Shown here one piece after another: positions 5,596 to 24,552 of a stretch of 64,000 nt of DNA. Below the pieces are notes generated by a model. The model was not told the origin of the DNA. It did not search any database and saw only the letters and a program-made list of their open reading frames with translations. Origin of the DNA: a virus (lineage: Duplodnaviria > Caudoviricetes); the IMG/VR virus record IMGVR_UViG_3300025711_000239, positions 1 to 64,000 of that record. One strand, written 5' to 3'. The translations under genes and the position numbers were made by a program. Position 1 is the stretch's first letter, and every line of letters begins with the position of its first letter.

Positions 5596-5633
5596 AGGTC
5601 TCTGTCTTTTCATTTGACAAGCAGAGACCTTTT
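5596..5633 (+). terminator. Terminator after NACHT gene
   Basis: AAGGTCTCTG...CAGAGACCTTTT. Confidence 0.7.
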
Positions 5634-7400: not shown

Positions 7401-7939
7401 TGTCATTTTTAACTGCTGCTTCCGGCTTGCGCGCCGGGGCCATTCCCTGGTACAGTAATTCCGCTGTCGCAAAATCGGCAGCCGGGATTGGCGTCCTGAA
7501 TATAACGTTGGCGACACCAGACGCGCCTTGCGTCTTTTTTTGTGTCTGTGCCCTGATGCACCCATTTTCCGGGCGACGGTTCTGTATCCGTTGTACCTTC
7601 CGCGTAATGGTGGCTCAGGCGGGGGCTTCTCACGAAGCGCCGGTTTCCAATGTTGCCGGTTACGCCAACCCCGTCTGGGCTACCACCAGTGAAATTGGCG
7701 TTTCCGGTGGTAGCTGTACGCTACTAACATTGGAGACTGCCATCATGGCTACGGTCCTTAATTCCCCATACCCTCAGTTTGTTTTCGTCTTTGCCGCCGT
7801 CCGCCGCTGCGAGCGCCAGCAGCATATTCACATGCTCCGCACCGTTGCCGCCGATGAGCGCGCCGCCCGCCTTTCGCTTTCCCGTGACTACGTGCTGTCC
7901 TTTGCCGCCCGCCTGCCGGTCCGGGAGGTGCGCGCATGA
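7400..7939 (+). CDS. Ash/Icd-like protein
   Basis: [10 protein letters not shown] and [12 protein letters not shown]...[10 protein letters not shown] motifs of P4-like immunity regions. Confidence 0.8.
7608..7688 (+). ncRNA. c4/CI-like immunity antisense RNA
   Basis: TGGTGGCTCAGGCGGGG...CCCCGTCTGGGCTACCACCA long stem containing GCCAA; complementary TTGGCG sites near 7487 and 7695. Confidence 0.6.
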
Positions 7940-8160
7940 CTCACGCCACGATTTCTCACGCCGACCTCGTACGCCTTGAACACCTGCGTAACGCCGGGCG
8001 CTTTGTCAGCGATATGACGGCCTTTCAGGAGTGCCACGAACTCCCGCAGCCCGCTCAGCGCGAACAGCTGGCATCGCTGGTCTTTCTCATCACCGAGCAG
8101 CTGGATGAAGTGGTGACGCGCTGCCAGAACAACTGGATGAACGCGGAGGATGAATCATGA
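7936..8160 (+). CDS. P4-like hypothetical protein
   Basis: ATGA-coupled within the alpA-primase operon. Confidence 0.7.
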
Positions 8161-8480
8161 AAGACCGCACCCTTTCGCCTGAACTGCGCGCCGCGCTTTC
8201 ACGCCGCGCCGTCGCCTGCGCGTGGCTGACAATCTGCCATGAACAGCAGCGCTACCCCGGCCTGACGCTGACGCGCCTTGAGCACTTTATCGAAACCGAG
8301 CTGGAGGGCTTTTACCTGCGCCAGCACGGACGCCTGCGCGGTCAGGAAATTGCCTGCGCGCTGCTGGACGACCTGCTTTCCACCGGGCCGCTGAAGTCGG
8401 CCCCGCGCCTGAGCTTTCTCGGCCAGGTGATGATGGATGAACTCTGCGGGCGCATGACAGACGCGCCGGTGCTGCACTGA
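8157..8480 (+). CDS. DUF5375-like protein
   Basis: [12 protein letters not shown]...[11 protein letters not shown]; usual position before P4 primase. Confidence 0.75.
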
Positions 8481-8494
8481 GGGAGAACAGAACG

Positions 8495-10819
8495 ATGAAA
8501 ATGACCGTATCAGAAGCGGCCACCGCTGCGCGGGGCCACTGGCCCCGCATTCTGCCCGCGCTGGGCGTGAAGGTAATCAAAAACCGCCACATGCCGTGCC
8601 CGGTCTGTCAGGGAACGGACCGCTTTCGCTTCGACGATAAGGACGGGCGCGGCACGTGGATTTGTAATCAGTGCGGTGCCGGTGACGGCATGGACCTGGT
8701 GAAAAAGGCGCTCAGCATTACGTTCAGAGAGGCCGCCGTGCGCGTAAACGAACTGACCGGCAACCTGCCGCCGGTAGCGGCAGGCAACAGCACGGCAGCC
8801 GGTCCCGAAACGGACGAGGCATCCCGCGCCGCAGCGGCTGCACTGGCGCAGCAGCTGGTCAGCACGGCAAAGGAAGCGGCGGGCAACGCCTATCTGTCCC
8901 GGAAGGGGCTGCCAGAGCAGGCGTGCCTTACACTTTCAAAGGCGCATAAGGTGGCGTTAACGACCTACCGCACCGGCGATGTGGTTGTGCCCCTGCACGA
9001 CATGAGCGGCCAGCTGGTTAACGTGCAGCTCATCAATGCCAGCGGAGAGAAGCGCACGCTCAAGGGCGGCCAGGTGAAAGGCGCCTGCCACGTTCTCAGC
9101 AGCGCTAAGCCGGCAAAGCGCATCTGGCTCGCAGAGGGCTACGCGACCGGCCTGACGGTGCACAACCTGACCGGTGATGAGGTGTGGGTTGCGCTCTCAT
9201 CGGGCAACCTCCTTTCTCTGGCTGGCCTTGCCCGTGAAAACCACGCCACGCTGCAGCTGATGATTGCCGCCGACCGCGACCTTAACGGCAACGGTCAGGA
9301 TAAGGCGAAGAAGGCCGCTGATGTCAGTAAGGCCGTCGTCGCGCTGCCACCCGTGTTCGGCGACTGGAACGACGCCTTTGTGCAGCACGGCGACGTCCCG
9401 ACGAAGCAGGCGCTTGCTGAGGCCGCCGCGCCCGCCACCGCCAGCCCGTTTGACGTGATGAGCGAAGCGGAGTTTTCGGCCATGAGCGCCAGCGAAAAGG
9501 CGGAGCGCGTTGCTGAGCATTACCGCAATGCGCTGGCGGTGGATGCCAGCGGCGAAATCCTGTCACGCTACAGGGCGGGCGCGTGGAAGGTCATTTCGGG
9601 GAAGCAGTTTGAGCGCGACGTGGCGAAGCTGTTCCAGCGGCTGCGCGCGCCGTTCTCGGCGGGCAAAATTTCAGGCGTGGTGGATACGCTGAAGCTGATG
9701 CTGCCGCAGCAGTCCGACCCGGCGCGCCGCCTGATAGGCTTTCGCAACGGCGTACTGGACACCCGTACCGGCAGCTTCAGCCCGCACAGCAAACGCTTCT
9801 GGCTGCGCACGGTCAGCGAGGTGGACTTTACCCCGCCGGTTAAGGGCGAGACGCTGGCAACCCACGCGCCGCACTTCTGGCAGTGGCTGGACCGCGCCGC
9901 CGGACGAGACGCGGCAAAGCGCGATATTATTCTCGCCGCGCTGTTTATGGTGCTGGCGAATCGCTACGACTGGCAGCTGTTTCTGGAGGTCACGGGTCCC
10001 GGCGGCAGCGGCAAAAGCATCATGGCCGAAATCGCCACCATGCTGGCCGGAACGGACAACACCACCTCCGCGACCATCGAGACGCTGGAGTCATCGCGCG
10101 AGCGCGCGGCGGTGATTGGCTTCTCGCTGATAATTCTGCCCGACCAGGAGAAGTGGAGCGGCGACGGTGCGGGCATCAAGGCGATTACCGGCGGCGACGC
10201 GGTATCCGTGGACCCGAAGTACCGCGATGCCTACTCAACGCACATTCCGGCGGTGATTCTGGCGGTAAACAACAATCCGATGCGCTTCACCGACCGCAGC
10301 GGCGGCGTATCGCGCCGCCGGGTCATCCTGCACTTCCCGGAAATCATCCCGGCAAACGAGCGCGACCCGCAGCTGAAGGAAAAAATCAGCGGCGAGCTGG
10401 CCGTCATCGTGCGCCAGCTGATGCAGCAGTTCAGCCAGCCGCAGGACGCAAGGGCGTTGCTTCAGTCGCAGCAGAACTCCGATGAGGCGATGCGCATCAA
10501 GCGCGACGCGGATCCGATGGTGGACTTCTGCGGCTACCTGTTCACCACGCCGGAGCCTACTTCGCTTTACATGGGGAACGCCAGCATCAGGCCCTTACAG
10601 CCAAGACGCTATCTTTACCATGCCTATCTGGCTTATATGGAGGCGAACGGTTACAGGAATCCACTCAGCATGAAGATGTTCAGTCTGTCGCTGGAGAGCA
10701 TTATGCGTGAGTACGGGCGTCATTATCTGAAGCGGCGCACGAAGCTGGGGATGCAGACCAATCTCGATCTGACTGAGGAAAGCAGTTCTGACTGGCTGCC
10801 CAAGTGTGATGCCACCTGA
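8495..10819 (+). CDS. P4 alpha-type primase/helicase
   Basis: CPVC/CNQC zinc finger, Toprim EGYATG, SF3 helicase GPGGSGKS. Confidence 0.96.
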   Translation: MKMTVSEAATAARGHWPRILPALGVKVIKNRHMPCPVCQGTDRFRFDDKDGRGTWICNQCGAGDGMDLVKKALSITFREAAVRVNELTGNLPPVAAGNSTAAGPETDEASRAAAAALAQQLVSTAKEAAGNAYLSRKGLPEQACLTLSKAHKVALTTYRTGDVVVPLHDMSGQLVNVQLINASGEKRTLKGGQVKGACHVLSSAKPAKRIWLAEGYATGLTVHNLTGDEVWVALSSGNLLSLAGLARENHATLQLMIAADRDLNGNGQDKAKKAADVSKAVVALPPVFGDWNDAFVQHGDVPTKQALAEAAAPATASPFDVMSEAEFSAMSASEKAERVAEHYRNALAVDASGEILSRYRAGAWKVISGKQFERDVAKLFQRLRAPFSAGKISGVVDTLKLMLPQQSDPARRLIGFRNGVLDTRTGSFSPHSKRFWLRTVSEVDFTPPVKGETLATHAPHFWQWLDRAAGRDAAKRDIILAALFMVLANRYDWQLFLEVTGPGGSGKSIMAEIATMLAGTDNTTSATIETLESSRERAAVIGFSLIILPDQEKWSGDGAGIKAITGGDAVSVDPKYRDAYSTHIPAVILAVNNNPMRFTDRSGGVSRRRVILHFPEIIPANERDPQLKEKISGELAVIVRQLMQQFSQPQDARALLQSQQNSDEAMRIKRDADPMVDFCGYLFTTPEPTSLYMGNASIRPLQPRRYLYHAYLAYMEANGYRNPLSMKMFSLSLESIMREYGRHYLKRRTKLGMQTNLDLTEESSSDWLPKCDAT

Positions 10820-10836
10820 AATTCATAATATTTAGA

Positions 10837-10858
10837 ACCGGCGAAAGCCGGTTTTTTG
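10837..10858 (+). terminator. Terminator after primase
   Basis: AACCGGCGAAAGCCGGTTTTTT. Confidence 0.8.
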
Positions 10859-10968
10859 CGCTCGTTAAAGGCGCTAAATTCATCCAGCTCCATATAAAAA
10901 ATACATTCTCTGATATGTAAGAGAATTTCGCTTGCCACATTTGAAATGAGTCGAGTCCGCTATGAGCG

Positions 10969-11125
10969 CAGGCTGTGTAAAACTGTTTTGGTCGCTTAAT
11001 CTGCGTAAAACAGGGTTGAAAGCAGCGCTCATAAGTAAAATTTGGCTCAGCTAACCTGTCGATTAATTCCAGATTTTGCGTAGATGCACGCACTTCAGTA
11101 TGAGTCAGAGTTTTCACACAGCCTG
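10969..11125. mobile_element. 157-bp MITE inserted in a palindromic site
   Basis: Terminal inverted repeats CAGGCTGTGT(G)AAAACT; 4-bp duplication AGCG on both sides; too short for a transposase. Confidence 0.75.
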
Positions 11126-11223
11126 AGCGAGGAGCGGACGCTAAAATGATGGCGACCGGGAAGTTCTGCCACATTAGACATAACACCCCGGCCACGTACG
11201 GAACGCGCGCAGCCTTAGAGCGG

Positions 11224-11624
11224 CTAGGGCAGTGCGTTCTGGTAGAGGTCCCAGCGATTGCCGTAGATGTCCTCGAATACAACCACCATCCCATACTCCT
11301 CCTGCCGCGGCTCCTGGCAGAAGTGGACGCCCTTTTCCTTCATGGCGTTGTAGTCGCGCCAGAAGTCGTTGGTCTGCAGGAACAGGAATACCCGCCCGCC
11401 GCACTGGTTCCCGATAAAACTCTCCTGCCGCTCGTTTGAGGCGCGAGCCAGGAGGAGATTACAGTCGCTTTCCGGGTTCGGTGTCACCACAACCCAGCGT
11501 TTGCCAGGCTCGGCGTGTCCTCAACCAAGGTAAAGCCCAGCTTGTCGGTGTAGTACTCGATCGCGCGGTCGTAGTCGTCGACCACTATCGCCACGTATCC
11601 CATGCATCGCTTTTGCGTTCTCAT
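11224..11624 (-). pseudogene. VOC/glyoxalase family protein, frameshifted
   Basis: MRTQKR..VAIVVDDYDRAIEYYTDKLGF, a 1-bp shift near 11510, then ...VVVFEDIYGNRWDL. Confidence 0.85.
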
Positions 11625-11854
11625 TTCTGCTCCGTCAGGTTTCAGGCACAACAGCCCGGACACCCTCTTTTAACATATAAGTGCCTGACCGCCCCCCCCC
11701 TGAGAGGCCCTCAGCGCGATTCTGGCGCTAACGAAGCGTTTCCGTCACTTTTTTCCGGCCAGAATCCTGAAAAACGGCCATGAAGATTACGGTGCATCTG
11801 AATTATTGTGCGGTAAGATTTACTCTCCACCGATTAGTGCTCGCAGATGCTGGA

Positions 11855-11921
11855 AACGTCCGCTTCAAATGGCACGAAGCGGACGCTAGCAAAAGGTTTG
11901 CTATGAGCGAAAACCGGAAGC
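11855..11921. repeat. Two adjacent palindromic sites
   Basis: CGTCCGCTTC-aaatggcac-GAAGCGGACG, then degenerate GTTTGCTATGAGCGAAAACCGGAAG. Confidence 0.75.
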
Positions 11922-12082
11922 AACAAAAAATGCATTTGCCGTTTCCGGTAGTTTATTGTATTTTTTAGTCGGCTTTATTCGTATGCCCGCGAAAGCAAGT
12001 TACGGATTCACTATCTCACTTTAATTTGTGAGAGGGGAATCTGCACTTGCGCAATTCTGCCTCTCACCCCACGGAGGCAAGC

Positions 12083-12301
12083 ATGTCTAATAATAATCTC
12101 TCAGTTCCAGCTACCCGTAAAATCAAAGGAAAAGCGCTTACACGTATCGATCAAGAACAAAAAACGATCAATTCAGGCCCATTAGGCCCAGAACGCCTTA
12201 TCATCAATATCGCACTTGATTTCATGGAAAAATATCCTGGTATGTCTTGGGAGCAGGCTTTAGTTGCCGCCATGGGCTACTGTGATCGCACTCATAGCTA
12301 A
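12083..12301 (+). CDS. Small hypothetical protein (72 aa)
   Basis: GGAGG SD before ATG; 14 nt upstream of next gene. Confidence 0.65.
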   Translation: MSNNNLSVPATRKIKGKALTRIDQEQKTINSGPLGPERLIINIALDFMEKYPGMSWEQALVAAMGYCDRTHS

Positions 12302-12315
12302 TAGTGAGGCAGATA

Positions 12316-13356
12316 ATGGCGAAACCAAACATTACGAAGATCTTTCATAATGGGCATGCATATGAGCTTGAGTATGGTGGATGGTTAAATCATAGATATG
12401 GCGAGGCTAGCAAAGCTTTAACTGAAGTATATTCAAACGATATTCATCTCAACAATACTACTATTGGTGAATATAAAGCCGCGAAAAGTGATGAATATGA
12501 GGGAGTTAAAGATAAACGTGATATGACGTTTATGAAATACCTTAGGCAATCCTTTAAGACTGAATTTGATATGGAGTGGGATGAGACAATCAAGGGAATA
12601 AAAAAAGCTATTAACGATAGCTGCATCCCTTATCTAATTCGTCAAAAAGCAGATGCATCAGTTGAAGAAAAATCTACAGCTATTTACCTAGCTGCTGCAA
12701 ACGGTCATGTTGCTTCAACCTATTTCATTGCCACGGCTATGAGTGATGGGGATGATGAGAATTGCTTATATTGGTTAACTTTAGCTCATAAGCGGGGTCA
12801 CATTGGTGCTGCATATGATATGGCAGCTTATTTCTATCGAATAGGAAACACCTTAGATGCCCTAAGGTGTTTAATCGTCTCAGCTGATGGTGGCTGCGAT
12901 TTTGCGTATTTAACTCTATTTAACATCGAATTGTTGAAAAGCATGCTGACTATTCAAGATAGCTCAAAGTTAGATGCTATGTTGAATGAGCTGGTTGATG
13001 GATCGCACAGTTCGAGTGCTCGATACTTCAAAGCTGTACGGCTTTTGGCGGGAGATACACCAACAGAGGGTGTGGCTCTTATGAAAACTTTTCGTCAAAC
13101 GCCAAAGAAAAAGCCTGCTGATAAAGACATTGATGATGTATATCGGAACCAAATGGCTTTTACTGAAGAGTTCTTGCATACGGTGCTTAGTGATATTAGT
13201 TCTCGAAAGCCCCCTTTAGTATCACTAATGGAATGTTCGCTTAAGTTTTCAGACCCTCGCCGAGCAGAAGAGGGGAAGTCATTTGCGTTAAGTTTTGAGG
13301 ATTATAGAGAGTCATTAGAAATGTTCAAAAAATATAAAACAAATGAAAGTGCATGA
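12316..13356 (+). CDS. SEL1-like repeat protein
   Basis: LAAANGHVAS, WLTLAHKRGHIGAAY and SADGG repeats. Confidence 0.7.
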   Translation: MAKPNITKIFHNGHAYELEYGGWLNHRYGEASKALTEVYSNDIHLNNTTIGEYKAAKSDEYEGVKDKRDMTFMKYLRQSFKTEFDMEWDETIKGIKKAINDSCIPYLIRQKADASVEEKSTAIYLAAANGHVASTYFIATAMSDGDDENCLYWLTLAHKRGHIGAAYDMAAYFYRIGNTLDALRCLIVSADGGCDFAYLTLFNIELLKSMLTIQDSSKLDAMLNELVDGSHSSSARYFKAVRLLAGDTPTEGVALMKTFRQTPKKKPADKDIDDVYRNQMAFTEEFLHTVLSDISSRKPPLVSLMECSLKFSDPRRAEEGKSFALSFEDYRESLEMFKKYKTNESA

Positions 13357-13439
13357 AAATAGGTAAGCAATCGATTCTTTTACGATTAGTACGGAGATCC
13401 AAACGGTTCACTCTGGTGCAAGCCGCTTTATGACGCTCT

Positions 13440-13521
13440 CTGTAGTAAATCCGAGTTCTTCGTTTCATGGCAACGTCCCCCTTGATTAAGGATAGCGTTG
13501 CATCGACCCATTGAACTCACA
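13440..13521 (-). mobile_element. IS30-family left-end stub
   Basis: Near-identical to 19073-19153, including the transposase start ATGAAACGAAGAACTCGG. Confidence 0.7.
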
Positions 13522-13703
13522 CCGAGGAGCGGACGTTCGCAACTTGAATAATCGTATGGCTAACTTTGAGGTGTCTTAATCAACGGGGAACTGGTCAAGT
13601 GAGGAGGGAAAGGAACATTTTCGCGAAGTGAATTCTGCCTGCGGTTTGTTAGGCGCAGGCGGAATCTTATGTAATATTTTAACTTTTTGCAGTTGTTAAT
13701 CAC

Positions 13704-15239
13704 TCAGCTATATATGAATTTTAATGTTCTTTTTACATAGCTTTTAGCTTGTTCTATATCGTTGGAAACCTCCCCCCCATGATGTTGAGCATTTCCAAAA
13801 TCTTTGAGGTTGTATAATTCTTCAATATGCTTTTTCATTGAAAAATAATTTTTATTTTCGTCGCTTTCATTAATTATATCGAGCATTGCACCAAGCATAA
13901 TTTCATTATTAAAGTCAGTGGGGAAGCGGGTTTTCAAATAATCTTCCAATACTATGCGCATAGCCGGTAAAACCTCATGCAATTTATCATTGCATTCTCC
14001 TGATACAAAGGAATGTAATAATTTAATTCTTGCAACATAACTACTTTCAACAACCTTTTCATTCCATAATGAAATGCTACTAGTGTTATTATCGAAATTT
14101 TTACTTATGCTGTATTGCTGTGCAGAAGATAGCGATTTATCAGTCTTCATGAGATGTAAGAATTTTGCATCATGAGATAATATAAAAATCTGGCGTGTTT
14201 TTTTCTTTAATTCTTTTATTATTTCTTTTGTTGCATGTCTTCTGGATTCATCAAAGCTTGACATGGGGTCATCGAATACAACTATTGTTTTTTTAATGTT
14301 TTTAGAAGCGTCAAGTTTTGATAGGAAGAAAGCTAAAGAAATTGCTCTCTTATCTGCATCGCTCAGCAACGTATCAAAGTACGGCAGCCCATGTTGAATT
14401 GTATTGGATGCAAAAATGTCCACTTCAAAGTCATTCATGCCTATTGAATATTTTAATCTTTTGGAAAGATCACTTGAGAAATTTGATGATCCTAACTTCA
14501 TAACTTTGAAGTTAGTACCGAATTTACTGAGGTAGTAATTTATGCTGGCTTGATGTAATGTCAATTCATCATCGATAATGCTAATTAACTTTTCTTTTTT
14601 AATTCTTATGGATTCAATTAATGATTTTTTCTTGTTAAGAAGTTTTTTTGATTCTTCAAGAATTTCATTCTGATCCTTATTTTTCACGATAGAAGCTAAA
14701 TCATCTGGGTCTGATAATAGAAACATACTCTTAGTTTTTCCTGGGGACAAAGATAAATGAGAAATACATTCCGATAGTTTTTTATTTACTCCGCTTAGTG
14801 AGAGGTCGATTACTTCCAGTTCTTTAAAGACTTCTTTTCCTTCTTCATTTGCAAAAAGAAGTGAGAATAAACGCTCTCTTTGCTCTTTAAATATAGCATT
14901 ACCTGAGTAAACATTGTCATTGATAAAGGATGAGTCATAAACGGCCAGGCTCAGATCATTTAAATCCCAGCCTTTCTTATGATTAAATTTGAGAGTTTTT
15001 CCATTTTCTAACTCCAAGATGACTTGTGGCTCGGATTTTGATGATGGCAATCTTGCGTGTTTCATTATGAACCGAGGGCTGTTTCCTTCTAAAGATTTAA
15101 AAATAGATGCTAAGGTTGATTTTCCACCTCCATTATCACTATAAATCAAGTTGATGTCAGAAAATATTGGGAACTTAGAAGGTGTAGAGAAGTTAGCAAA
15201 CCTTCCAATATCTTTTATATATTTTATACTCTTTATCAT
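13704..15239 (-). CDS. ABC-type ATPase (AAA_13/RloC-like) with possible C-terminal HEPN-like domain
   Basis: Walker A NGGGKST, signature LSDADK, Walker B VVFDDPMSSFD, H-loop LSHD; C-terminal MRIVLE...NAQHH. Confidence 0.8.
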   Translation of the reverse strand: MIKSIKYIKDIGRFANFSTPSKFPIFSDINLIYSDNGGGKSTLASIFKSLEGNSPRFIMKHARLPSSKSEPQVILELENGKTLKFNHKKGWDLNDLSLAVYDSSFINDNVYSGNAIFKEQRERLFSLLFANEEGKEVFKELEVIDLSLSGVNKKLSECISHLSLSPGKTKSMFLLSDPDDLASIVKNKDQNEILEESKKLLNKKKSLIESIRIKKEKLISIIDDELTLHQASINYYLSKFGTNFKVMKLGSSNFSSDLSKRLKYSIGMNDFEVDIFASNTIQHGLPYFDTLLSDADKRAISLAFFLSKLDASKNIKKTIVVFDDPMSSFDESRRHATKEIIKELKKKTRQIFILSHDAKFLHLMKTDKSLSSAQQYSISKNFDNNTSSISLWNEKVVESSYVARIKLLHSFVSGECNDKLHEVLPAMRIVLEDYLKTRFPTDFNNEIMLGAMLDIINESDENKNYFSMKKHIEELYNLKDFGNAQHHGGEVSNDIEQAKSYVKRTLKFIYS

Positions 15240-15640
15240 ACTTCCTCCGTAGGAACTCAATGTAGAAAAATAAAGTTTAATTAAGTGACATCATATAGAA
15301 ACACTAATCATATATCTATTTGACGCATATATAATTCACTAAAAAAATGTCGTAGATATTAATATAACACTTTAAGGCAACTTTACAGCACATGTAAAGT
15401 TGAAACTTCCGGAAAAATAGATGAATTGAGCAGAAATTAAAACAGTATATGTTGAGTTTTGGTTTTATATGAAAAATTTTATAGTAATTAAGAAGACAAC
15501 CTCCTGATTGCTAAAAGCGCCGGTTCGACCGGAGAACTGCTGACAGCTCTTACCCAGTTACGCAAGTCCCTTAGATATTAAGCTTATTTTATCCATCAGG
15601 GATGAAACTGTCACCAATCATGCTGAATGCAAAATATTTG

Positions 15641-15670
15641 AACGGCAGTTACTGACACAGAGCTGCTGTT
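15641..15670. repeat. Palindromic site downstream of small recombinase
   Basis: AACGGCAGT-tactgacacaga-GCTGCTGTT, geometry like the 11855 site. Confidence 0.55.
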
Positions 15671-15684
15671 ACAGCCCTCACAAA

Positions 15685-16284
15685 TTAAACTTCAATAGAT
15701 CCAGATATCTCCATGGCATCATCCACTTCAATACCGAGATAACGGACTGTACTTTCGAGTTTTTTGTGACCTAACAATAGCTGGATCACTCGAAGATTCT
15801 TCGTTTTTTTATAGATCAGATATGGCTTGGTTTTCGCGTAGAATACGTACTTTACAGGGTCTCGTCGAGACCCTGCTCATCAATCCATCCATGAAAATTA
15901 CGGTTATATTGCCTAGTTGAGATATGCCGTGAAGAACCGACGCGGGACTGGAACAGATAGTCGCTACTACGTAGATGAGCCATTTTTATCCACGCTGCTA
16001 CAGCCTCTCTGGTTCCCTTAGTCAGTTCAAACTGAACGGGCTTCCCGTTTTTTGCAGCAGCACTGTCGCTCTGCCCTAAACAGAGTGCCCATAGGCCACA
16101 TCAGAAACTTTTAACTTAACCAGATCACAGGCCCGAAGTTAACTGTCCAGAGCCATGTTAAACAGAGCTAAATCGCGCACTTTTCCTTCCAGCTTAAGTC
16201 TGATACGGAATCCCCAGATATGAGAGATTTGAAGAGGCCGTTTCTGGCCTAAGATACGGCACTTGTTCCAAGGGATGTTGTCAT
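15685..16284 (-). pseudogene. Small (~200 aa) tyrosine recombinase, decayed
   Basis: Manual translation: PWNK..GQKRPL...RDLALFNMALDS*LRACDL...NLRVIQLLLGHKKLESTVRYLGIEVDDA; several stops and frameshifts; absent from the ORF track. Confidence 0.88.
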
Positions 16285-16322
16285 GCTCTATTTCCTTTGG
16301 GTTAGGAGATGTGATTATGGTT

Positions 16323-16349
16323 GTCCCATATGAGCGAGAAGCAGATAAT
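16323..16349. repeat. Palindromic site upstream of small recombinase
   Basis: GTCCCATATGAGCGAGAAGCAGATA versus consensus GTCCGCTATGAGCGAGGAGCGGACG. Confidence 0.65.
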
Positions 16350-16409
16350 GGAGTGCTTATAAAAGTTTAATACTTGTCTCAGTCCGAGATTTTGGTAAGT
16401 ATTGATTCA

Positions 16410-17087
16410 CTATAGTTTTCCGCCAGCATAAAGGGAGGCCCATATAGCAGCACCAGCAAAGATAAGAACTAAAAATCTCTCAACCGTTTTGATAACTTTA
16501 TGTCTATATGTTGACTTGAATCTAAAGTCATTAAAAATAAGGTATTGCCTATAAATATAATTACTCATGTTGGAAGCAGAATGCTGTGAAGTGGATGTAC
16601 AATACCTAAAATATACAGAAAAATGTTTTTTTATGTGTTTGGGTGTTATTTGCGATGGGTTTTGATACTTGCCTATTATTATTTCAGTTTCATTGATTTT
16701 CCCAGCATTAGATTGATATGGCGCAACAAACACAAGAACATCACCGGATGGTCCCTGCGAATACCATAATTGAGCATTCCTTTCGAACGCAACTTCTAAG
16801 CTTTCGTTGTCTGGGGATGTTATGTTAAACCCCAAGAATCTGAGCCCAGTAAAAACATGAGTCGAATTAATATGTTGTGAACTAATAAGATTAGATGATT
16901 TGATTGGTTCATCATCTTTTGATCTGCTAATGTAAAGGCTCCCAAAGATATCGGTACTATGAGAGTCAGCATTTAAAATTTCAAACTCCCTTTGAATTCT
17001 ATCGTCCATAAACCTCCAATTTATGCGTTTAAAATATGCATTTAAACTATCTCTTCTTATTCTCTCTGCAGCGGACTTTAATTTCAA
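16410..17087 (-). CDS. Hypothetical protein with C-terminal TM helix
   Basis: 225 aa AT-rich ORF ending FLVLIFAGAAIWASLYAGG. Confidence 0.7.
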   Translation of the reverse strand: MKLKSAAERIRRDSLNAYFKRINWRFMDDRIQREFEILNADSHSTDIFGSLYISRSKDDEPIKSSNLISSQHINSTHVFTGLRFLGFNITSPDNESLEVAFERNAQLWYSQGPSGDVLVFVAPYQSNAGKINETEIIIGKYQNPSQITPKHIKKHFSVYFRYCTSTSQHSASNMSNYIYRQYLIFNDFRFKSTYRHKVIKTVERFLVLIFAGAAIWASLYAGGKL

Positions 17088-17306
17088 TGTAAATCCTTAA
17101 ATATAAAAATAGTTCATCATATATTCATGGGTAAACTAGGAAGTTGTTATGCTGATGAGCATAACTGGCAATAAAATCAAAAAAGTTCCAAGCATACTAC
17201 ATCAACAAACATCGATGCGCTCACATTCAGTATGAGAAACTTAGTTACGTCTGCTAACCTGCTCCCCCTTAAACTAATGCAGCATGATGTTAGGAACTTC
17301 CGCTTT

Positions 17307-18543
17307 TGACCCTGACCCCGAATATGATCCAGACATAATCAGGAATAACCGGCTTCAGGTTGGTTGCTTATTCTGGCAACCGGCAGATTTTTCGGCAAAT
17401 TCGGATGGGGTCATCCAGCCCAGCGCAGAATGGGGACGACTCTGGTTATAGTGTATTCGCCAGGCTTCGATTTTGCACCGGGCATCCTCCATCAACATAA
17501 ACCAGTTCTCGTTCAGGCATTCCTGCCGCAGCCTGCCGTTGAATGATTCCACCGTGGCGTTATCCGTGGGCGTACCCGGTCGCGAAAAGTCAATCCGGAT
17601 ATCATGTTCGTATAACCATTTATCCAGCATTTTTCCCGCAAATTCAGAACCATTATCAGTTTTCAGTAGCTGTGGCAGCGGTCGCCTCAGCGCTATGTTA
17701 TTCAGCATCTCAGCCACTTCTGAGGACCGCAGGTTCTGGCCCATGCAGATCCCCAGACATTCGCGCGTGTAGAGATCGATTACCGTCAGCAGGCGAAGCC
17801 GGCGACCGTCAAACAACGCATCGGAGACAAAATCCATCCCCCATACATGATTGGGATACAACCCCTGCGGCTGGGGCTGCCGTTTCAGCGCAGATTTAAT
17901 ACGGCGGGGGCGCTTTAGCCGCAGCGATAATCCCTGCTCGCGGTAAAGCCGGTAAATGCGCTTGTGATTATCGCGCCAGCCTTCCCGTTTCAGCATGACG
18001 TGGACCCTGCGGTAGCAGTAGTGGACGCGGGTTTCGGTTATCTCCCTGATGCGCAGCCGCAGCGCGCTGTCGTCTGCCGCAACGGAGCGGTAGCGGAACG
18101 AACTGCGGCTGACCTGCAGCGCAAAGCAGACCTGTCTCTCACTGGCACCGTAGCGGGTCTGTTAGTCCCTGACCCACTCGCGCAGGCGTGCCAGCGTCAG
18201 CTCTTTTTTGCCAGCACGTCCTGCAGCGTGGCCTTGTCGAGGCTCAGATCGGCAACCAGCCTCTTCAGGCGAAGGTTTTCCTCCTCGAGCTGCCGCATAT
18301 GTTTCAGTTCTGAAGGCGAAATCCCACTGTACTTTTTGCGCCAAGTGTAGAACGTGGCGTCGGAGATGCTCAGCTTGCGGCAGACTTCCGGTACGGGCGT
18401 ACCCAGCTCAGCCTGCTTCAGGGCAAAGACAATCTGCTCTTCGTTAAATCGTGACTTTTTCATCGGCACAACCTCCGCTCAGGGGAGTGAATATCATGCC
18501 GGAATTCTGTTTCTGAATGGAGCAGGATTTCGTGTCAGGGTCA
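17307..18543 (-). mobile_element. IS3-family insertion sequence, probably inactive
   Basis: Inverted repeats TGACCCTGAC; orfA 18197-18463, A6G shift site, DDE orfB (WGMDF, DNGSEF, VESFNGRLR) with premature stop at 18162. Confidence 0.92.
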
Positions 18544-19153
18544 TTTTTTTAATGCACCCCGGGTTTGTATAAAAAGCGTTTTATATATCGTTTCGTGTGG
18601 CACATGCATTTCCTGATTATCCGGATAACAGCGTTTCAGCCAACCGGCGATTTGTTCCGGCGACCAGTCCTGATGCATCTTCTCTGCGATGATTCTACAC
18701 TTTGGGTCTTTCAATTAGCTTGCAAGGTTTTAGTCTCAGAGCATTTTCCCACGCAGCAGTATCCGCTTTTGATGCACGGTATTGATTTGCACCAGCGTGC
18801 CTCTTTATTTCCCGGCTAATCGTTGAGGGGGCTCTCGATAGTTTGTTTGCGATCGCCCTGATGCTGATTTTGCTACCAGCGCTCTGGATATTTCCTCTCT
18901 TTCATCAAGTGAAAGCGCTAACGGATGCCGCTTTCGGACAGGGGGCGGTATCCACCAGTCTGGTGGATAGTGGGCATAATAGAAGAATGATATCTGTCGA
19001 ACATTCTGGCGATATCATGCAGGGAATCACCTTGCTTATATCTGTCCCAGATAATCGCCTTCTGCTCTGGCGTGTAGTTAATCCGAGTTCTTCGTTTCAT
19101 GGCAACGCCCCCCTTGATTAAGGATAGCGTTGCATCGACCCGTTGAACTCACA
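18544..19153 (-). pseudogene. Truncated IS30-family element
   Basis: MKRRTRINYT...IARMF N-terminus and HETIYKTLFIQTRGALK fragment cut at the IS3 end; terminus TGTGAGTTCAA. Confidence 0.8.
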
Positions 19154-19398
19154 ACGAAAAGCAGACATTCTTTTCAGGATAACTCTCACTCCTCTTTTGA
19201 CTTATAGGATGTCAGTTATTTCGGCTATTTGTAGTTCAATGCAGTTGATTGAGTAAGGAATAGATCTGACTCGTTATGCAGGCCCTAGTACCAAAGCTTA
19301 AACCTGTAGACAAATTGCACAACCAGAATGTATAACGAATTGGGATTATTCTTATTTGCTGGCTGGTATCTGGCACCCTACCCACGGCTCTCACCTGG

Positions 19399-20349
19399 AT
19401 GACAAATATGGAAATTGAGAAAAACACGATTGATGATGTTATGCGTGCTGTGTTTGAAAATATCCTGTCAGATGGTGTTCCTGTTGAAACAACGCGGGGT
19501 CCGACAAAAGAGATTCTGGGTACACACATCATTTTGAGCAATCCGATTTGCCGGATTAGCAGAACAGAATCCAGAGGTAAAATATTCACCTGTCTGGGTG
19601 AGTTGATGTGGTACCTATCAGGCAGTGACGAGGTTGAATCTATTCGCTATTACATCTCAAAATACCAGGATTCTGCAGAAAGTGATGGCACAATTAATGG
19701 CGCTTACGGACCTCGTCTCTTTGGTACCAAGAATGAAATTAACCAGATTGAGAATGTCATCCGGCTTTTAAAAAAACGCAACACATCTAGGCGAGCAGCC
19801 ATACAGCTTTTTGACGCAAACGATATAGCCCATCCCTTCGTTGAAGTCCCCTGTACTGTCGGGCTCCAGTTTGCGATTAGGAATGATTCCCTCGATATGT
19901 TCACATTCATGCGCTCTAACGATGCGCGAGCAGGACTGGTTCACGACATATTTGCATTCACGATGCTTCAGGAAATGATTGCAAAAACCCTCGGTTTAAA
20001 TTTGGGCGTTTATCGCCATTATGCGGCAAGTCTGCACATCTATACCGAGGATATTCCCCTCATCGAAGCTGCGCTTAAAGAGGGTTATGCGCCATCTGCA
20101 CCAGTTATGGTGGCAATGCCCACAGAGGATATAAATCACTACTTATGCATCATTGTTGATGCAGAGAAACGCATCCGAGAGGGCGACATTCCAGACATTG
20201 ATACGCTAAGCCTGAGTGAATACTGGAAAGATGTCCTTCGTATGCTGGCGATATTCAGATGCAAAAAAGACAAGGACTTGCCAGCTGCTCGGTCCATTGC
20301 CGGGAAATTGCAAAATCAGTCATACAAAATTTATCTTGAGTGGTTGTGA
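19399..20349 (+). CDS. Thymidylate-synthase-fold nucleotide-modifying enzyme
   Basis: GELMWYLSG, GAYGPR, VPCT catalytic Cys, MRSND, SLHIY. Confidence 0.88.
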   Translation: MTNMEIEKNTIDDVMRAVFENILSDGVPVETTRGPTKEILGTHIILSNPICRISRTESRGKIFTCLGELMWYLSGSDEVESIRYYISKYQDSAESDGTINGAYGPRLFGTKNEINQIENVIRLLKKRNTSRRAAIQLFDANDIAHPFVEVPCTVGLQFAIRNDSLDMFTFMRSNDARAGLVHDIFAFTMLQEMIAKTLGLNLGVYRHYAASLHIYTEDIPLIEAALKEGYAPSAPVMVAMPTEDINHYLCIIVDAEKRIREGDIPDIDTLSLSEYWKDVLRMLAIFRCKKDKDLPAARSIAGKLQNQSYKIYLEWL

Positions 20350-20357
20350 GGGAGAAA

Positions 20358-21296
20358 ATGAAACGACAGGATCTAATTGATGAAATTTCAGAGCAGCTCG
20401 AATCGTTCAGTACACACGAAATCCCGCTCAGGGGATTAGATACCCCCGACAAAATCACAACGCTCGCCGCACAGATACTCGACAGCAAGCGTCGTATTGA
20501 GTACGTCGGAGCCATTGGTAGAAATAAGATATCCCCGCTTCGGGGAAATCCCCACAGCGATATTTTTGATCCGCTACGAGCTGCATGGTTGCATGTTTAT
20601 GAAGGGAATGTAGATGAGGCGTGCTGGCTTATTTTCCTGTCCACCCACTTTGGCAAACATCTCAAATATGGTTGGCAATTGTGCGCCGACATTTATGGTG
20701 GACTCGGTGGCGATGTATGGACTTGGGAGAAAGTGGTTGCGGAAGTGGACACCTTTCACGCCTGGTATGAGGGCTGCTATCGCCAGATGCTGGCAGACGG
20801 TCAGAAAAGAAGGTTTGGGAACCATAGAAAGTACGAATCCCTCAAACCGGACAGCAAGCGCCCCCTTCCACGCGTTATCAGCTCATACGTAGCGTGGGTA
20901 GGAAACGTAGGTAGTCACGAAGCGCGATTTGCTGAAGCCAAAGCCGCATCTAGTAGTCAGGAAGAGTACTTTGATATTCTTTACCGAAGCATGAGGGCTG
21001 TTTTGTCATTTGGGCGGGCTGGAAGGTTCGACTTTCTGACAATGCTCATCAAGTTCTGCATTATTGATGCCAAGCCGGGAACGCTGTATCTGAACGGGGC
21101 AACAGGACCTCTGGATGGCGCAAACCTTCTATTTTACGGTGAAGCGAGAAATGCGGCCAATTATAAGGTATTAGACGATCTTCTGGCGAGGCTCAGCGCC
21201 TTCATGGACATGGGACTGCTTGAAATGCAAATTCTTGAGGATGCTCTTTGCAACTGGCAGAAATCACCCTCTCGCCACGTTTACTTTGGCGGATGA
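20358..21296 (+). CDS. aGPT-Pplase clade 3 (HhH glycosylase-fold) protein
   Basis: WLIFLSTHFG, FGNHRKYES, FGRAGRFDFL, GATGP, EDALCNWQK motifs recalled for this family; next to TS-like gene. Confidence 0.72.
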   Translation: MKRQDLIDEISEQLESFSTHEIPLRGLDTPDKITTLAAQILDSKRRIEYVGAIGRNKISPLRGNPHSDIFDPLRAAWLHVYEGNVDEACWLIFLSTHFGKHLKYGWQLCADIYGGLGGDVWTWEKVVAEVDTFHAWYEGCYRQMLADGQKRRFGNHRKYESLKPDSKRPLPRVISSYVAWVGNVGSHEARFAEAKAASSSQEEYFDILYRSMRAVLSFGRAGRFDFLTMLIKFCIIDAKPGTLYLNGATGPLDGANLLFYGEARNAANYKVLDDLLARLSAFMDMGLLEMQILEDALCNWQKSPSRHVYFGG

Positions 21297-21298
21297 TT

Positions 21299-22381
21299 TC
21301 AGGACAGATCTTCACGGTTATATTTGACTTTGAATTTGGCAAAATGATCAAAGGGAATTTTTTGGGCGTGCTGTAACTGCCCCAGCACTATCCCTTTTGA
21401 TACACCAATTTTCCGAGCAAATTTAATAATATTTTTCCAATTTCGCCCACTCAGCTTGTCAAACTCTGCACGGTATGCTGGGGGAATCAGGACGTTGCTG
21501 GAAAACTCGTTTGCTTCCTGTTCTTCTTTTTCAGAAAGGCCACTCATTCCTTCTATGCGGTGCTGTTCACAGTTGTGCAGAACCAGATGGCCAATCTCAT
21601 GGAACAACGTAAACCAAAAATGATCGTCTCTGAGATACCGAAAACTCATTATTAGTGTCGCTTTGCCAGACTCAAAAAAACAGGTAGCGCCGCTTGCTGG
21701 ACAACCTGTTGGCGTTGGCAGGATCACAAGCGCTACACCAGCGTCAGCGAGTATGCTGCGTATCGCAGGAAGAAATACTTTGGGATCAGCTTCAAGAGAA
21801 TGTTTTCTTAAAGCTTCTAGGCTGCCTTTAAGTATTTCCTTATCCCATGCATAAGTTCTCTGTTTTCGCGAAATATATTCAGCTTTCTTGAGCCAAGTTA
21901 TTACGGCCATTTCTTCCGTTCTGAAAGCTTCAGATTTTCTGAAAGCTATAGCAGTCTGTTTACTTTTATAATAATCAAACCATTCAGGTACAGATGAAAC
22001 GCCGAAAAAACTCAGGCAATACTCTACTTTTTTATTACCACTCAGGCCCTTCGGGATCCAACCCAGTTTACTCATATCTGACGTAGGCAGAGACTGAACC
22101 CATTCATTATTTTGGCGAATGATGGCATCTTTATGTTGGCGATATTTATTTTCACGACTGAGCCAGAAAGTCGTGCTGACATTGAAGAGAGATTCAAGTT
22201 TGTTGGCAATCTTCTCAGTGAGAATAAGCTCACCAGAAATCAACTCACGACTTTTAATCATGGAAAGGCCAACTCTTTTACTGAGCTCTTCTTCGTTGAA
22301 ACCAAGTTCATCCATGAGGTCTATTATGGTATCTCCGGGGGCTGACACCCAATCCGTGTTAAATCCGTTATCAGAAACCAT
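21299..22381 (-). CDS. HigA-like HTH fused to ImmA/IrrE metallopeptidase
   Basis: PGDTI HTH N-terminus; FWFTLFHEIGH zinc motif; EQEAN. Confidence 0.9.
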   Translation of the reverse strand: MVSDNGFNTDWVSAPGDTIIDLMDELGFNEEELSKRVGLSMIKSRELISGELILTEKIANKLESLFNVSTTFWLSRENKYRQHKDAIIRQNNEWVQSLPTSDMSKLGWIPKGLSGNKKVEYCLSFFGVSSVPEWFDYYKSKQTAIAFRKSEAFRTEEMAVITWLKKAEYISRKQRTYAWDKEILKGSLEALRKHSLEADPKVFLPAIRSILADAGVALVILPTPTGCPASGATCFFESGKATLIMSFRYLRDDHFWFTLFHEIGHLVLHNCEQHRIEGMSGLSEKEEQEANEFSSNVLIPPAYRAEFDKLSGRNWKNIIKFARKIGVSKGIVLGQLQHAQKIPFDHFAKFKVKYNREDLS

Positions 22382-22706
22382 AATCTTCGCCTATATGAAC
22401 CAATTTCAACCGAGTTACCCGACCCCAATCAAGTGAATTGTCTGCCTGACGGGGTGGTTTGAGATGACCATTTACAAAGTACATCTTAACGCCTTCGCTA
22501 AGGTTAATTGTAACGTAATCGCATCCATTTTCGCATAAAAACTCTGTTTTAAGAAAACTTGGAAGCTCAGCTATCGATGCTGAAGACCAGATATCAGCAC
22601 ACCGCACGCGCAGTTTTGCAGCTACGGCATCACCGAACAAATTTATCCCTGCTTCTTTAAACTCAACTGAATCTCTGAGTTCGGAACTGTCACAAAAAAT
22701 CTGCAA
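22371..22706 (-). CDS. HigB/RelE-like partner protein
   Basis: Overlaps the antitoxin start; probable TTG start at 22706; DWGRVTRLKL C-terminus. Confidence 0.6.
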   Translation of the reverse strand: MQIFCDSSELRDSVEFKEAGINLFGDAVAAKLRVRCADIWSSASIAELPSFLKTEFLCENGCDYVTINLSEGVKMYFVNGHLKPPRQADNSLDWGRVTRLKLVHIGEDYGF

Positions 22707-23071
22707 TGGGTTACCAACGCTGAGCGATTTATCAGAGAATATTATATTGTAATGTATAAAAAATCCACGGTTTAACGGGCAGGTACATGAGGATGTCAAT
22801 GAAATTTCAATAATTACGCTCACCGCTTAATTGAAACTGTCATCTAGGAACAGTGAACAAAGCTTATAACTAAAATCTCCACATTTTTCCGCTGTAGCTC
22901 TCTGGTCCTACCCACGAAATGCGAACTCACTTTGTTGCGGCCAATATTGATCTTCATTCGGCATTCTATTCTTTATCATCCATTTGGAACGCACCATGAC
23001 TAGTAAGCAGCGCATAAAGTACTAAGGGTACCTGACCAACTCTCCGTTGATTCACTCATAACGCTGTTAGC

Positions 23072-23100
23072 AATGTCCGCTTTTCGCTCAAAGCAGACTG
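23072..23100 (-). repeat. Palindromic site, inverted orientation
   Basis: Reverse complement CAGTCTGCTTTGAGCGAAAAGCGGACATT. Confidence 0.75.
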
Positions 23101-23175: not shown

Positions 23176-24552
23176 TTAGTTCGTTGCCTGCGCGCTGACA
23201 GACTCGAAAATGGCAAAGCTTAACCCCTTCCCTTCACCAAATTCCTCCTCAATTTCTCCTGATACAGCCGTTAGCACATCATTCAGCGTCAGCTCACCGC
23301 CGCCGAACATATCCCCCAACGCCTGCTGCTGGTGTAACAGCTCGTCATTGATCTTTTGCCCCATCTTTTTAAACGCGGCCCCGATACGTTTTGCGCTGCG
23401 GTTGTTTGCCACGATAAACAGCGCCAGCGCTTCGGCCTCTTTGCTGGATTCTTCAAATAATCCCTGCTGCGCCAGCACTTCCTGTATGGCCTGTCCGCTG
23501 TCTTTAGCCTGGCGCACAAGCTTAATAGCATCCTGCAGCGCGGCGATTGCCTGCTGGTCGAGACCATCAACCGACTGCACGCCGTCCACCAGCCCGGTGA
23601 CGGCCTGCCGGTGAACGTCTCCGGATAGCATCTGCATCTGTGCAAACTCGCTTGCCGCCGTGTTGAGCGCCGTCAGGATGTTACGCATTTCTGGATCGGG
23701 CTCTTCGGATACCAGCTTAACCAGGCGTTCGTCTTTGTAGGCGCGGGCAAAGATCGCATTCTGCATGCGGTCAATCAGCTGCTTCGTCGGGCGCCCGTCT
23801 TCGGTTAGCAGCCCTGCCGTCGCAGTGTCGCCAATCTCTTTCATGAACGCCCGAATAAAGCCGTCATTTGAGCGCGCCAGAAGGTTGCCGTCGTCGGACG
23901 GATTGAAGATGGCCATCAGACTCTCGTCGAGCATTTCAGCATCAACAAAAGCCTTTTCACTCGCGGCCATTTCCTGCAAATCCGAAAGGTTGGAGTCTTT
24001 CGCAAACTGCGCACGATCAACATCAGTAATACGCTCACGCACCAGTACCGGCATATCCATCTGCGCGATATCGGATGCCTTCAGGCCATAGTCTTTAGCG
24101 TGGTCAATCAGGTATTGGCGATACTCGTCGGCCTGCCCCTGCTCATAGGCACGAGTGATCCCCATCGAACGGCCATTGCCTGACTCAACCACATTATCAG
24201 CGCCCACAATTGGCGCGCCGTGGCTGCTCATGCCTGAATCTGTCAGCTTTGCTGGTCGAAGGTTGCCCGCGATTTTGGATACCTGCACTTTGCTGGTCAG
24301 ACGGGTGCGGTCGCGTGGCTGTAGTTCAGCCGGGAAAAGTGGGTTTATGGTACCGTCGAGGTTGTTAGAAATAATCAGGTGGCGCGCATCCACCACCTTA
24401 AACGCGGTCTTCACTTCCTGCCCTTTACCAGTGACAACGTATGACGATCGCCCCGTCATGGTCTGCGCTTTACGCAGTGAGCCCACCAGCCCAATCAGGG
24501 CAAATATGCTGCCAGCGTCGCTCAGCAGATTTCGTAATTTCTCGTTAAGCAT
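23176..24552 (-). CDS. ddrB: DdrB-like ParB-fold protein, short form
   Basis: ELQPRDR, GAPIV, VESGNGR motifs; follows darA-ddrA. Confidence 0.75.
   Translation of the reverse strand: MLNEKLRNLLSDAGSIFALIGLVGSLRKAQTMTGRSSYVVTGKGQEVKTAFKVVDARHLIISNNLDGTINPLFPAELQPRDRTRLTSKVQVSKIAGNLRPAKLTDSGMSSHGAPIVGADNVVESGNGRSMGITRAYEQGQADEYRQYLIDHAKDYGLKASDIAQMDMPVLVRERITDVDRAQFAKDSNLSDLQEMAASEKAFVDAEMLDESLMAIFNPSDDGNLLARSNDGFIRAFMKEIGDTATAGLLTEDGRPTKQLIDRMQNAIFARAYKDERLVKLVSEEPDPEMRNILTALNTAASEFAQMQMLSGDVHRQAVTGLVDGVQSVDGLDQQAIAALQDAIKLVRQAKDSGQAIQEVLAQQGLFEESSKEAEALALFIVANNRSAKRIGAAFKKMGQKINDELLHQQQALGDMFGGGELTLNDVLTAVSGEIEEEFGEGKGLSFAIFESVSAQATN

Follow-up and report, generated by a model that had tools for sequence, protein, structure and literature searches.

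We analysed a cassette of four genes in a 64,000-nucleotide stretch of viral DNA (IMG/VR record IMGVR_UViG_3300025711_000239, positions 1 to 64,000; Caudoviricetes), referred to here as the window. The cassette encodes a thymidylate synthase (TS)-like enzyme and a protein of the aGPT-Pplase superfamily, termed the transferase below; convergent with this pair are genes for a small protein and for a fusion of an XRE-type helix-turn-helix (HTH) domain with an M78 metallopeptidase (Table 1). Both enzyme open reading frames (ORFs) had been described in an earlier note made from the letters of the window, and both lie where it had placed them, on the same strand. The start of the transferase gene is probably ATG 20358, judging by its relatives and by the annotation of a 97.7%-identical plasmid, which would give a protein of 312 amino acids (aa) and leave the two enzyme genes 8 nt apart, with no overlap. 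The open frame of the small gene extends to 22823, and 11 nt of the gene are shared with the start of the peptidase gene. When the window was compared with a related locus (L002), the ratio of nonsynonymous to synonymous changes (pN/pS) was ~0.1 for each of the four genes, all of which are under purifying selection in this comparison.

Table 1. Features of the cassette (positions in the window; TS, thymidylate synthase; dCMP, deoxycytidine monophosphate)
Feature	Position	Strand	Remarks
Left boundary 15-mer CGAAAAGCAGACATT	19155..19169	+	Two other contexts of this cassette have homology from 19157 onward
TS-fold enzyme, predicted dCMP 5-hydroxymethylase, 316 aa	19399..20349	+	PF00303; MilA is the nearest solved chain
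Clade-3 aGPT-Pplase/ADDT-family protein, 318 aa	20340..21296	+	PF18746, PF18724
XRE-HTH + M78 (ImmA/IrrE) metallopeptidase fusion	21299..22381	-	Convergent with the enzyme pair; HExxH intact
Small protein, ~111 aa, TTG start, weakly HigB/RelE-like	22371..22706	-	Orthologue in 61/80 related loci
Right boundary 15-mer CGAAAAGCGGACATT, in the opposite orientation to the left one	23072..23086	-	Repeated unit of the record ends at 23086

The TS-like protein matched the Pfam family Thymidylat_synt (PF00303) with an E value of 1.4e-27 (96.9 bits; cut-off, 24.3) and has the catalytic cysteine of ThyA (Cys152, corresponding to Cys146). Using HMMER against solved chains, we aligned it with the cytidine monophosphate (CMP) 5-hydroxymethylase MilA (5b6d/5jnh; E 7e-43, query residues 36-302) and with the canonical ThyA 6auj (E 4e-16). 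Asp183, which ends the segment RSNDARAGLVHD (residues 172-183), stood opposite an Asp of MilA and opposite the Asn of 6auj (...RSADVFLGVPFN...). The occurrence of Asp, a cytosine-type residue, in place of ThyA Asn177 had been noticed before and is borne out by these alignments. We then aligned the window protein with 75 orthologous frames, the near-identical L002 row being dropped; 73 sequences were ungapped at the key columns, which in the window protein hold Cys152, Glu68, Arg131, Glu149, Arg172, Ser173, Asp175, and Asp183. Asp183 was conserved in 72 of these 73 sequences, and Ser173, Arg131, Asp175, and Cys152 were present in all 73. An acidic residue was found at position 149, which corresponds to ThyA L143, in 62/73.

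These positions have been linked to substrate and product. According to PMC5175136, cytosine substrates are associated with Asp at the N177 position and uracil with Asn, while Ser167 and Arg126' of TS go with deoxyribose and Ala176 and Lys133 of MilA with ribose. In PMC13326640, an acidic residue at L143 accompanies formation of a hydroxymethyl and not a methyl product, and D169N is described as the mark of flavin-type 5-hydroxy-dCMP synthases. Like the cytosine-nucleotide C5-hydroxymethylases of the T4 gp42/MilA type, the TS-like protein has Asp at N177, is acidic at L143, and retains Asp169. Since Asp169 is retained (as Asp175), the D169N 5-hydroxy-dCMP type is not indicated, and since the deoxyribose signature is kept (Ser173 and Arg131), the predicted substrate is dCMP rather than CMP. 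From residues conserved family-wide, we thus predict that the enzyme converts dCMP to 5-hydroxymethyl-dCMP. Two residues of ThyA, Asn177, which goes with uracil, and Leu143, which keeps water out so that a methyl product results, are replaced (by Asp183 and Glu149), and, judged by its sequence, the protein is not a thymidylate synthase, because it scored far below the cut-offs of all seven NCBIfam ThyA equivalogs (best score, 109 versus 174.55).

The second enzyme falls into clade 3 of the aGPT-Pplase superfamily: it matched aGPT-Pplase3 (PF18746) with an E value of 2.3e-94 (316.4 bits; cut-off, 25) over profile positions 2-278 of 279, as well as ADDT (PF18724; E 7.7e-66). Searches with the aGPT-Pplase3 and Thymidylat_synt profiles had been proposed in the earlier note, and each found its match. 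Clade 3 is a large family, with 3259 proteins at E <=0.001 among 5300 candidates. A structure model of the transferase built from 20 sequences (mean predicted local distance difference test score [pLDDT], 92.5) was compared with solved folds using VIA-align, for which Z 8 is in the background range for helical models. The best solved fold was that of 8z2m, the 5-phosphomethyl-dU glycinyltransferase gp46 of phage PaMx11 (Z 10.3, 225 aligned, root mean square deviation 4.6), followed by the queuine salvage enzyme DUF2419 (Z 8.6 and 8.0) and by helix-hairpin-helix (HhH) DNA glycosylases (Z 6-8). BFVD yielded amino acid:DNA transferases of phages, with E values of 3e-4 or weaker; a Foldseek search of the PDB with the model gave no match, and a profile search of PDB sequences with the transferase gave 0 matches.

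The catalytic motif of the phage enzymes is present in the C-terminal part of the transferase. In gp46, Glu243 and Thr244 are reported to hold a metal at thymine O4, with Cys247 as the nucleophile (PMC11472151), and the Cys and Glu were reported as essential in M6 gp51 and ViI gp247 (PMC8989533). We aligned MQVLEDALCNWQK of clade 3 with IQEVETILCKWKS of gp46 by hhalign, at a local E value of 0.0075 and low probability, with the motif itself exact. In this alignment Glu300-Asp301-x-x-Cys304 is the counterpart of the catalytic Glu243-Thr244-x-x-Cys247, so that the essential Cys and the neighbouring Glu of the amino acid:DNA transferases (M6 gp51, ViI gp247, PaMx11 gp46) both have their equivalents. 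Glu300 and Asp301 were found in 78 of 78 clade-3 sequences and Cys304 in 77 of them. After the catalytic Glu, clade 3 thus has Asp, whereas gp46 and an Ackermannviridae homologue (FETSGACW) have Thr, and a comparison with these two thymidine-side examples suggests that the Asp may mirror the Asn-to-Asp switch of the TS-like partner.

The protein encoded convergently to the enzyme pair matched Peptidase_M78 (E 1.8e-8) and, over residues 15-341 of 360, the PADLOC model for component B of the defence system PD-lambda-2 (PD-Lambda-2_B, PDLC03982; E 1.3e-29); a further match was to PADLOC capP (E 1.7e-12). HExxH was intact in 70/70 sequences of this XRE-M78 family. PD-lambda-2 is a validated abortive infection (Abi) system in which component A is HigB-like and component B, an Xre-peptidase, is toxic on its own and rescued by A (PMC9519451). 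Neither component A nor component C was recovered here; for C, six window proteins were scanned without a match. For the small protein, 9 of the 30 nearest clusters in Atlas carried RelE/ParE names (score, 0.93), while its longer, 150-aa frame had no PADLOC match and a profile search gave no PDB sequence match of note. A search for an operator common to both promoter regions returned only 9- to 10-mers, and the counts of promoter-like and terminator-like sequences were not above those in shuffled sequences.

To define the gene set, we used relatives of the cassette from a scan of one genome per species, which yielded at least 192 relatives across many phyla; the best 80 loci were examined by calling ORFs on the extracted loci and clustering the flanking ORFs. 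The TS-like gene lay directly upstream of the transferase gene, on the same strand, in 75/80 loci, and in the other 5, which are cut by a contig end, the match was <500 bp from that end, in agreement with an obligate link between the two enzymes. A convergent XRE-HTH+M78 gene (~363 aa) was found in 77/80 loci, always downstream and on the opposite strand, and a gene of ~108 aa preceded it in 61/80. The previous description as a two-gene system does not hold, since the unit comprises four genes, including these two. The IMG/VR loci had the same composition, with the TS-like gene in 24/24 and the XRE-M78 gene in 23/24.

Some relatives carry additional genes. In 28/80 loci an unannotated gene of ~266 aa, which does not occur in the window, lies between the two enzyme genes (e.g., L012:1391-2188). 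Its product has the motifs GLNPS and HNxQSSFGV and no Pfam or NCBIfam match, and a profile search of PDB sequences was at chance level only. A model of this protein (pLDDT 92.7) has the fold of uracil-DNA glycosylases (UDGs): Foldseek returned 54 matches at E <=0.001, and family-4 UDG, UdgX, TDG, and SMUG1 were listed among them (E 4e-5 to family-4 UDG, UdgX, and TDG). The presence of this gene in some relatives points to an action on DNA bases. A DUF4031 (PF13223) gene of ~100 aa was observed in or beside the cassette in 16/80 loci (e.g., L043:5867-6184), just upstream of the TS-like gene in 11 of the 16. A gene for an 88-aa MazG-like protein, divergent from the small gene, was confined to an enterobacterial subclade (L004-L008, 5/80 loci) and was also seen in three Escherichia coli contexts (L087:15474-15737, L088:15499-15765, L118:15474-15737); it could supply dCMP from deoxycytidine triphosphate (dCTP). 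The statement that no kinase, MazG, or nuclease gene is adjacent is accurate within the window, and some related loci differ from it by this MazG-like gene. No 5-hydroxymethyldeoxyuridine (5-hmdU) DNA kinase is co-encoded with the cassette. HMUDK_hel (PF18723) had no match in the full 118.6-kb record, a search in which the control genomes gave no match either, and no kinase-like family recurred among the clustered neighbours of the 80 loci. Likewise, these loci contained no conserved restriction partner, and the proposal in the earlier note that the cassette serves self-marking is therefore left without support.

With a Citrobacter copy as the query, the cassette was detected in 237 of 5426 complete E. 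coli genomes (~4%), at 245 places, all of which were chromosomal and none on plasmids. We found 24 loci in 2.9 million IMG/VR contigs, and the transferase matched 0 of 50,697 GenBank phage records (tblastn at E 1e-5 and at E 10). Overall, the cassette occurs on islands, plasmids, and chromosomes, at times beside restriction genes. Its flanks include a type I restriction-modification (R-M) system with a P4-type integrase in Kluyvera, a TraI relaxase in Enterobacter, a GmrSD_N gene (GmrSD-family type IV restriction) in Ca. Pantoea communis, and, elsewhere, a GPA replication protein and integrases. Defence islands surround the cassette in the three E. coli contexts examined, two of which are the same island, with dGTPase, type I R-M, and SIR2 genes or with type I R-M, TIR, and LeoA genes. 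The K-12 mcrBC locus was present in neither of the two cassette-positive E. coli chromosomes searched for it, too small a number to be informative.

In the present record the cassette is linked to a phage-plasmid. The 94-kb Pantoea agglomerans plasmid NZ_CP134741 runs collinear (~98%) with the window beginning at position 19293. This P1-like phage-plasmid has P1 genes that include a darB-like SNF2 gene, portal, pro, ddrA, lpa, mat, ref, a Dmt-like methylase gene, and tail genes; ddrB-ParB is found at 23176-24552 of the window. Positions 1-19292 had no match to this plasmid, and the left junction of the window copy lies within an array of non-P1 cassettes. Two other loci, L002 and L089, share with the window only the cassette, from 19157 on, and differ from it and from each other in the upstream DNA, so that three left contexts meet one common boundary. 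The 15-mer at this boundary occurs only twice in the window, as the inverted pair given in Table 1. Because L002 and L089 share only the cassette from 19157 and the inverted 15-mer bounds it, the cassette is a discrete mobile unit of ~3.9 kb (window 19157-23086). The description of the system as non-phage holds only in part for this copy, which is cargo tied to the P1-like phage-plasmid, and stands across genomes, where the cassette is mostly non-phage, as the counts in viral collections show.

The 118.6-kb record contains two copies of the cassette, at 19293-23086 and 112634-116430, which are identical over 19501-22824 of the window and differ at their ends only. Copy 1 has its left end as in L002 and L089 and its right end as in the plasmid, and copy 2 has the reverse. 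Such swapped ends are the pattern expected of a single crossover inside the cassette, between the phage-plasmid copy and a resident copy, and equally of an assembler path through a 3.3-kb repeat. A crossover of this kind would integrate the P1-like phage-plasmid into the resident cassette array. We also considered that the two transferase matches, 93,344 bp apart, were the assembly overlap of a circle; this was ruled out, as the copies differ at their ends and in their flanks.

Several further features were observed around the boundaries. At its left junction (~8780-8815), L089 has a fuller palindromic site, GTCCGCTTT-GTGCCA-AAAGAGGAC, which fits the dif-like cassette array noted earlier. The palindrome consensus GTCCGCT-N8-AGCGGAC, proposed earlier, had 4 matches at <=3 mismatches versus 2.67 expected, none of them at the places cited for it; the 15-mer, as a half-site, performed better. 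Directly left of the cassette there are frames of the orfA/orfB type of the insertion sequence (IS) family IS3 and an IS30-type end (window 17355-18469 and 18544-19169), and beyond cassette copy 2 the stretch 18544-19169 recurs in inverted orientation (116416-117069 of the full record). The same non-P1 cargo stretch encodes a 518-aa AAA_13/SMC-like ATPase (window 13704-15260, minus strand) that matched the PADLOC candidate PDC-S06 (E 4e-47).

The cassette shares features with five groups of known systems. In the thymidine hypermodification pathways of phages M6, ViI, PaMx11, and PhiW-14, a deoxyuridine monophosphate (dUMP) hydroxymethylase, a 5-hmdU DNA kinase, and an aGPT-Pplase of clade 2 are described as acting in succession (PMC8989533, PMC11472151). 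As in these pathways, a TS-fold hydroxymethylase, here a predicted one, is paired with an aGPT-Pplase-superfamily protein of the same fold (8z2m) and with the active-site motif Q-x-x-E-[T/D]-x-L-C-x-W. Unlike them, the cassette is predicted to act on cytosine rather than uracil (Asp183), it has Asp instead of Thr after the catalytic Glu, and it lacks 5-HMUDK kinase, pyridoxal phosphate (PLP), radical-SAM, and flavin adenine dinucleotide (FAD) partners; its context is bacterial rather than that of a lytic phage, and it has its own XRE-M78/small-protein control pair. MilA is the best solved-chain match of the TS-like enzyme, including the extra C-terminal helical domain of MilA, and the Asp at N177 and the acidic residue at L143 are shared with MilA and T4 gp42. 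In contrast, Ser173 and Arg131 differ from the Ala176 and Lys133 of MilA, and neither a glycosidase of the MilB type nor a dCTPase, kinase, or glucosyltransferase of the T4 type is present.

The control pair resembles PD-lambda-2, a three-gene, toxin-antitoxin (TA)-like Abi system, in having a small upstream gene that overlaps the gene for an Xre-HTH and peptidase fusion; it departs from PD-lambda-2 in having no P4-antitoxin-like component C, in the small protein, which has no PD-Lambda-2_A match, and in the conserved convergent operon of two enzymes. The CapH/CapP and ImmR/ImmA switches likewise pair a conflict operon with an M78 peptidase that has HExxH, whereas here the HTH and the peptidase form one polypeptide and the genes that it presumably regulates are convergent. 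Finally, DefensePredictor has validated systems with TS, deoxynucleoside monophosphate (dNMP) kinase, 5-hmdU-kinase, and NMAD domain labels (PMC13092281), that is, bacterial, defence-linked relatives of phage pyrimidine-modification enzymes; the cassette is of this kind as well, with the difference that it contains neither a kinase nor an NMAD domain.

Taken together, we consider it somewhat more probable than the contrary that the four-gene mobile cassette is an anti-phage system, in which the operon of TS-like enzyme and transferase is controlled by the convergent pair of small protein and XRE-M78 fusion. A role in conflict with phages, suggested in the earlier note, is kept as the best current reading. 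Until infection or DNA damage occurs, the control pair would keep the enzymes in a silent or inactive state. The TS-fold enzyme, once active, would use methylene-tetrahydrofolate to convert dCMP to 5-hydroxymethyl-dCMP, and the transferase would act through its Glu/Cys pair, with which the phage enzymes attack a C5-substituted pyrimidine, flipped out of DNA, at C6 and exchange the group on its C5 methylene. Deoxycytidine nucleotides would in this way be diverted into 5-hydroxymethyl-C and derivatised further without the kinase step of the phage thymidine pathways, either in replicating DNA or in the nucleotide pool, and phage replication would be blocked. In the present record, where the cassette is cargo of a P1-like phage-plasmid, it would serve as a prophage-borne defence or competition gene set. 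DefensePredictor lists aGPT-Pplase among the domains of predicted, unvalidated defence systems, and reports validation in defence for a TS domain and a 5-hmU-kinase domain (PMC13092281).

A number of observations weigh against an anti-phage system of this kind. T4 needs a kinase of its own to bring 5-hydroxymethyl-dCMP to DNA, and the cassette encodes no dNMP kinase, which leaves the route of 5-hydroxymethyl-dCMP into DNA unaccounted for; the same is true of the leaving group for the transferase, as there is no kinase acting on the hydroxymethyl group. The window copy of the TS-like protein is off consensus at four positions of the active-site region (residues 154-181, window 19858-19945): Arg177 replaces a residue that is Phe, Tyr, or Trp in 70/73 sequences, Val181 replaces a Pro found in 69/73, and Val154-Gly155 stand where the family has Cys (56 of 73) and Thr (54 of 73). 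The Phe/Tyr, Pro, and Cys-Thr are shared by canonical ThyA, and with these departures the activity of the window protein may differ from that of its family. The second copy in the record is identical to the first. The TS-like gene of the window is under purifying selection despite these residues. The likeness of the small protein to HigB is weak (one of four tested reaches PF05015, with a sub-threshold E value of 0.003), with PD-Lambda-2_A matching 0 of 10 orthologues (PADLOC, E up to 1), and no PADLOC model matches either enzyme or the small protein. Association with defence islands is partial, because only 3 of 20 flanking proteins from other genomes scanned with Pfam are of a restriction type and 10 are housekeeping-like, the others being mobile-element proteins (4) or without a family (3). 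For clade 3 of the aGPT-Pplase superfamily itself, we found no characterisation in print. The earlier remark that functional characterisation is lacking remains valid for this clade and fails for the superfamily, in which clade-2 members have been characterised biochemically as amino acid:DNA transferases (PMC8989533) and a crystal structure has been solved (PMC11472151).

An extended form of the anti-phage reading can be formulated as "write-to-kill" immunity. On infection, 5-hydroxymethyl-dC would be fed into replicating phage DNA, and the transferase, as the first cytosine-directed, kinase-independent amino-acid:DNA transferase, with Asp301 in place of the Thr on the thymine-O4 side, would displace the hydroxyl directly and add a bulky adduct or form a covalent protein-DNA link; in the five-gene variants, the UDG-fold enzyme would turn this into strand damage. 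In this complete form we regard the proposal as rather unlikely.

Alternatively, the mobile element may write modified cytosine into its own DNA before transfer or packaging and so escape restriction, with the XRE-M78 switch coupling expression to induction of the element. Switches of the ImmA/ImmR type do couple to element induction, in the P1-like element the cassette adjoins the antirestriction genes ddrB, ddrA, and darA, and phage DNA-modification pathways reported to block restriction employ both enzyme families (PMC8989533). However, the dCTPase, dNMP kinase, and base kinase of complete replacement pathways are missing from the cassette, which moreover adjoins a GmrSD-family type IV gene in Ca. 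Pantoea communis and is rare in viral collections (0/50,697 phage records; 2.9 million IMG/VR contigs gave 24 loci). In chromosomes it is common: the species scan yielded at least 192 relatives, and among E. coli the count was 237/5426, with 0/245 places on plasmids. We consider an anti-restriction function unlikely. The chemistry could also be confined to the nucleotide pool: 5-hydroxymethyl-dCMP would be made and the HhH-fold partner would cleave or transfer the mononucleotide, so that deoxycytidine precursors are drained or a small molecule is produced while the DNA stays unmodified. Depletion of the pool is a known defence strategy, the MazG-like gene adjacent to the cassette in the enterobacterial subclade (5/80 loci) might supply dCMP from dCTP, and the second- and third-best folds of the transferase are DUF2419 (Z 8.6 and 8.0), the salvage enzyme for queuosine-5'-monophosphate. 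MilA, the nearest solved relative of the TS-like enzyme, acts first in a nucleoside-antibiotic pathway; 5-hydroxymethylcytosine is reported to be freed thereafter by an N-glycosidase (PMC4081090). A Z of 8 is, however, within background for helical models, the catalytic motif fits a DNA-acting transferase and not a glycosidase, and 28/80 loci have a gene for a DNA glycosylase-like protein of the UDG fold between the two enzymes; such a pool-only function appears quite unlikely to us. A secondary-metabolite reading of the mildiomycin type was dropped, as no other biosynthetic genes recur, and is kept only as part of the pool-only explanation.

We judge it highly improbable that the cassette is simply an addiction (TA) module of a plasmid or island, with the enzymes as its toxic part and no anti-phage role. 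The Xre-peptidase with its small upstream gene is indeed TA-like, component B of PD-lambda-2 is toxic alone, and the cassette travels on plasmids, islands, and a phage-plasmid. Yet many copies are chromosomal and lie next to housekeeping genes, and four intact enzymatic and regulatory genes, under purifying selection and spread over many phyla, are much for simple addiction; furthermore, TA-like systems of such an architecture tested positive for defence (PMC9519451).

The cassette is compact, with four genes in 3.9 kb, and common, being found in ~4% of complete E. coli genomes and with relatives in many phyla. In the record studied here, a P1-like phage-plasmid and another cassette array are joined through 3.3 kb of identical sequence, illustrating that such cargo can drive cointegration, or mis-assembly. 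Phages hypermodify their own bases to escape restriction, and the bacterial cassette, if our reading is true, would turn the same chemistry around, re-aimed at cytosine, without a kinase step and wired to a TA-like switch. This would amount to a new enzymatic reaction on 5-hydroxymethylcytosine, relevant to epigenetic sequencing tools, and to a new logic of immunity.

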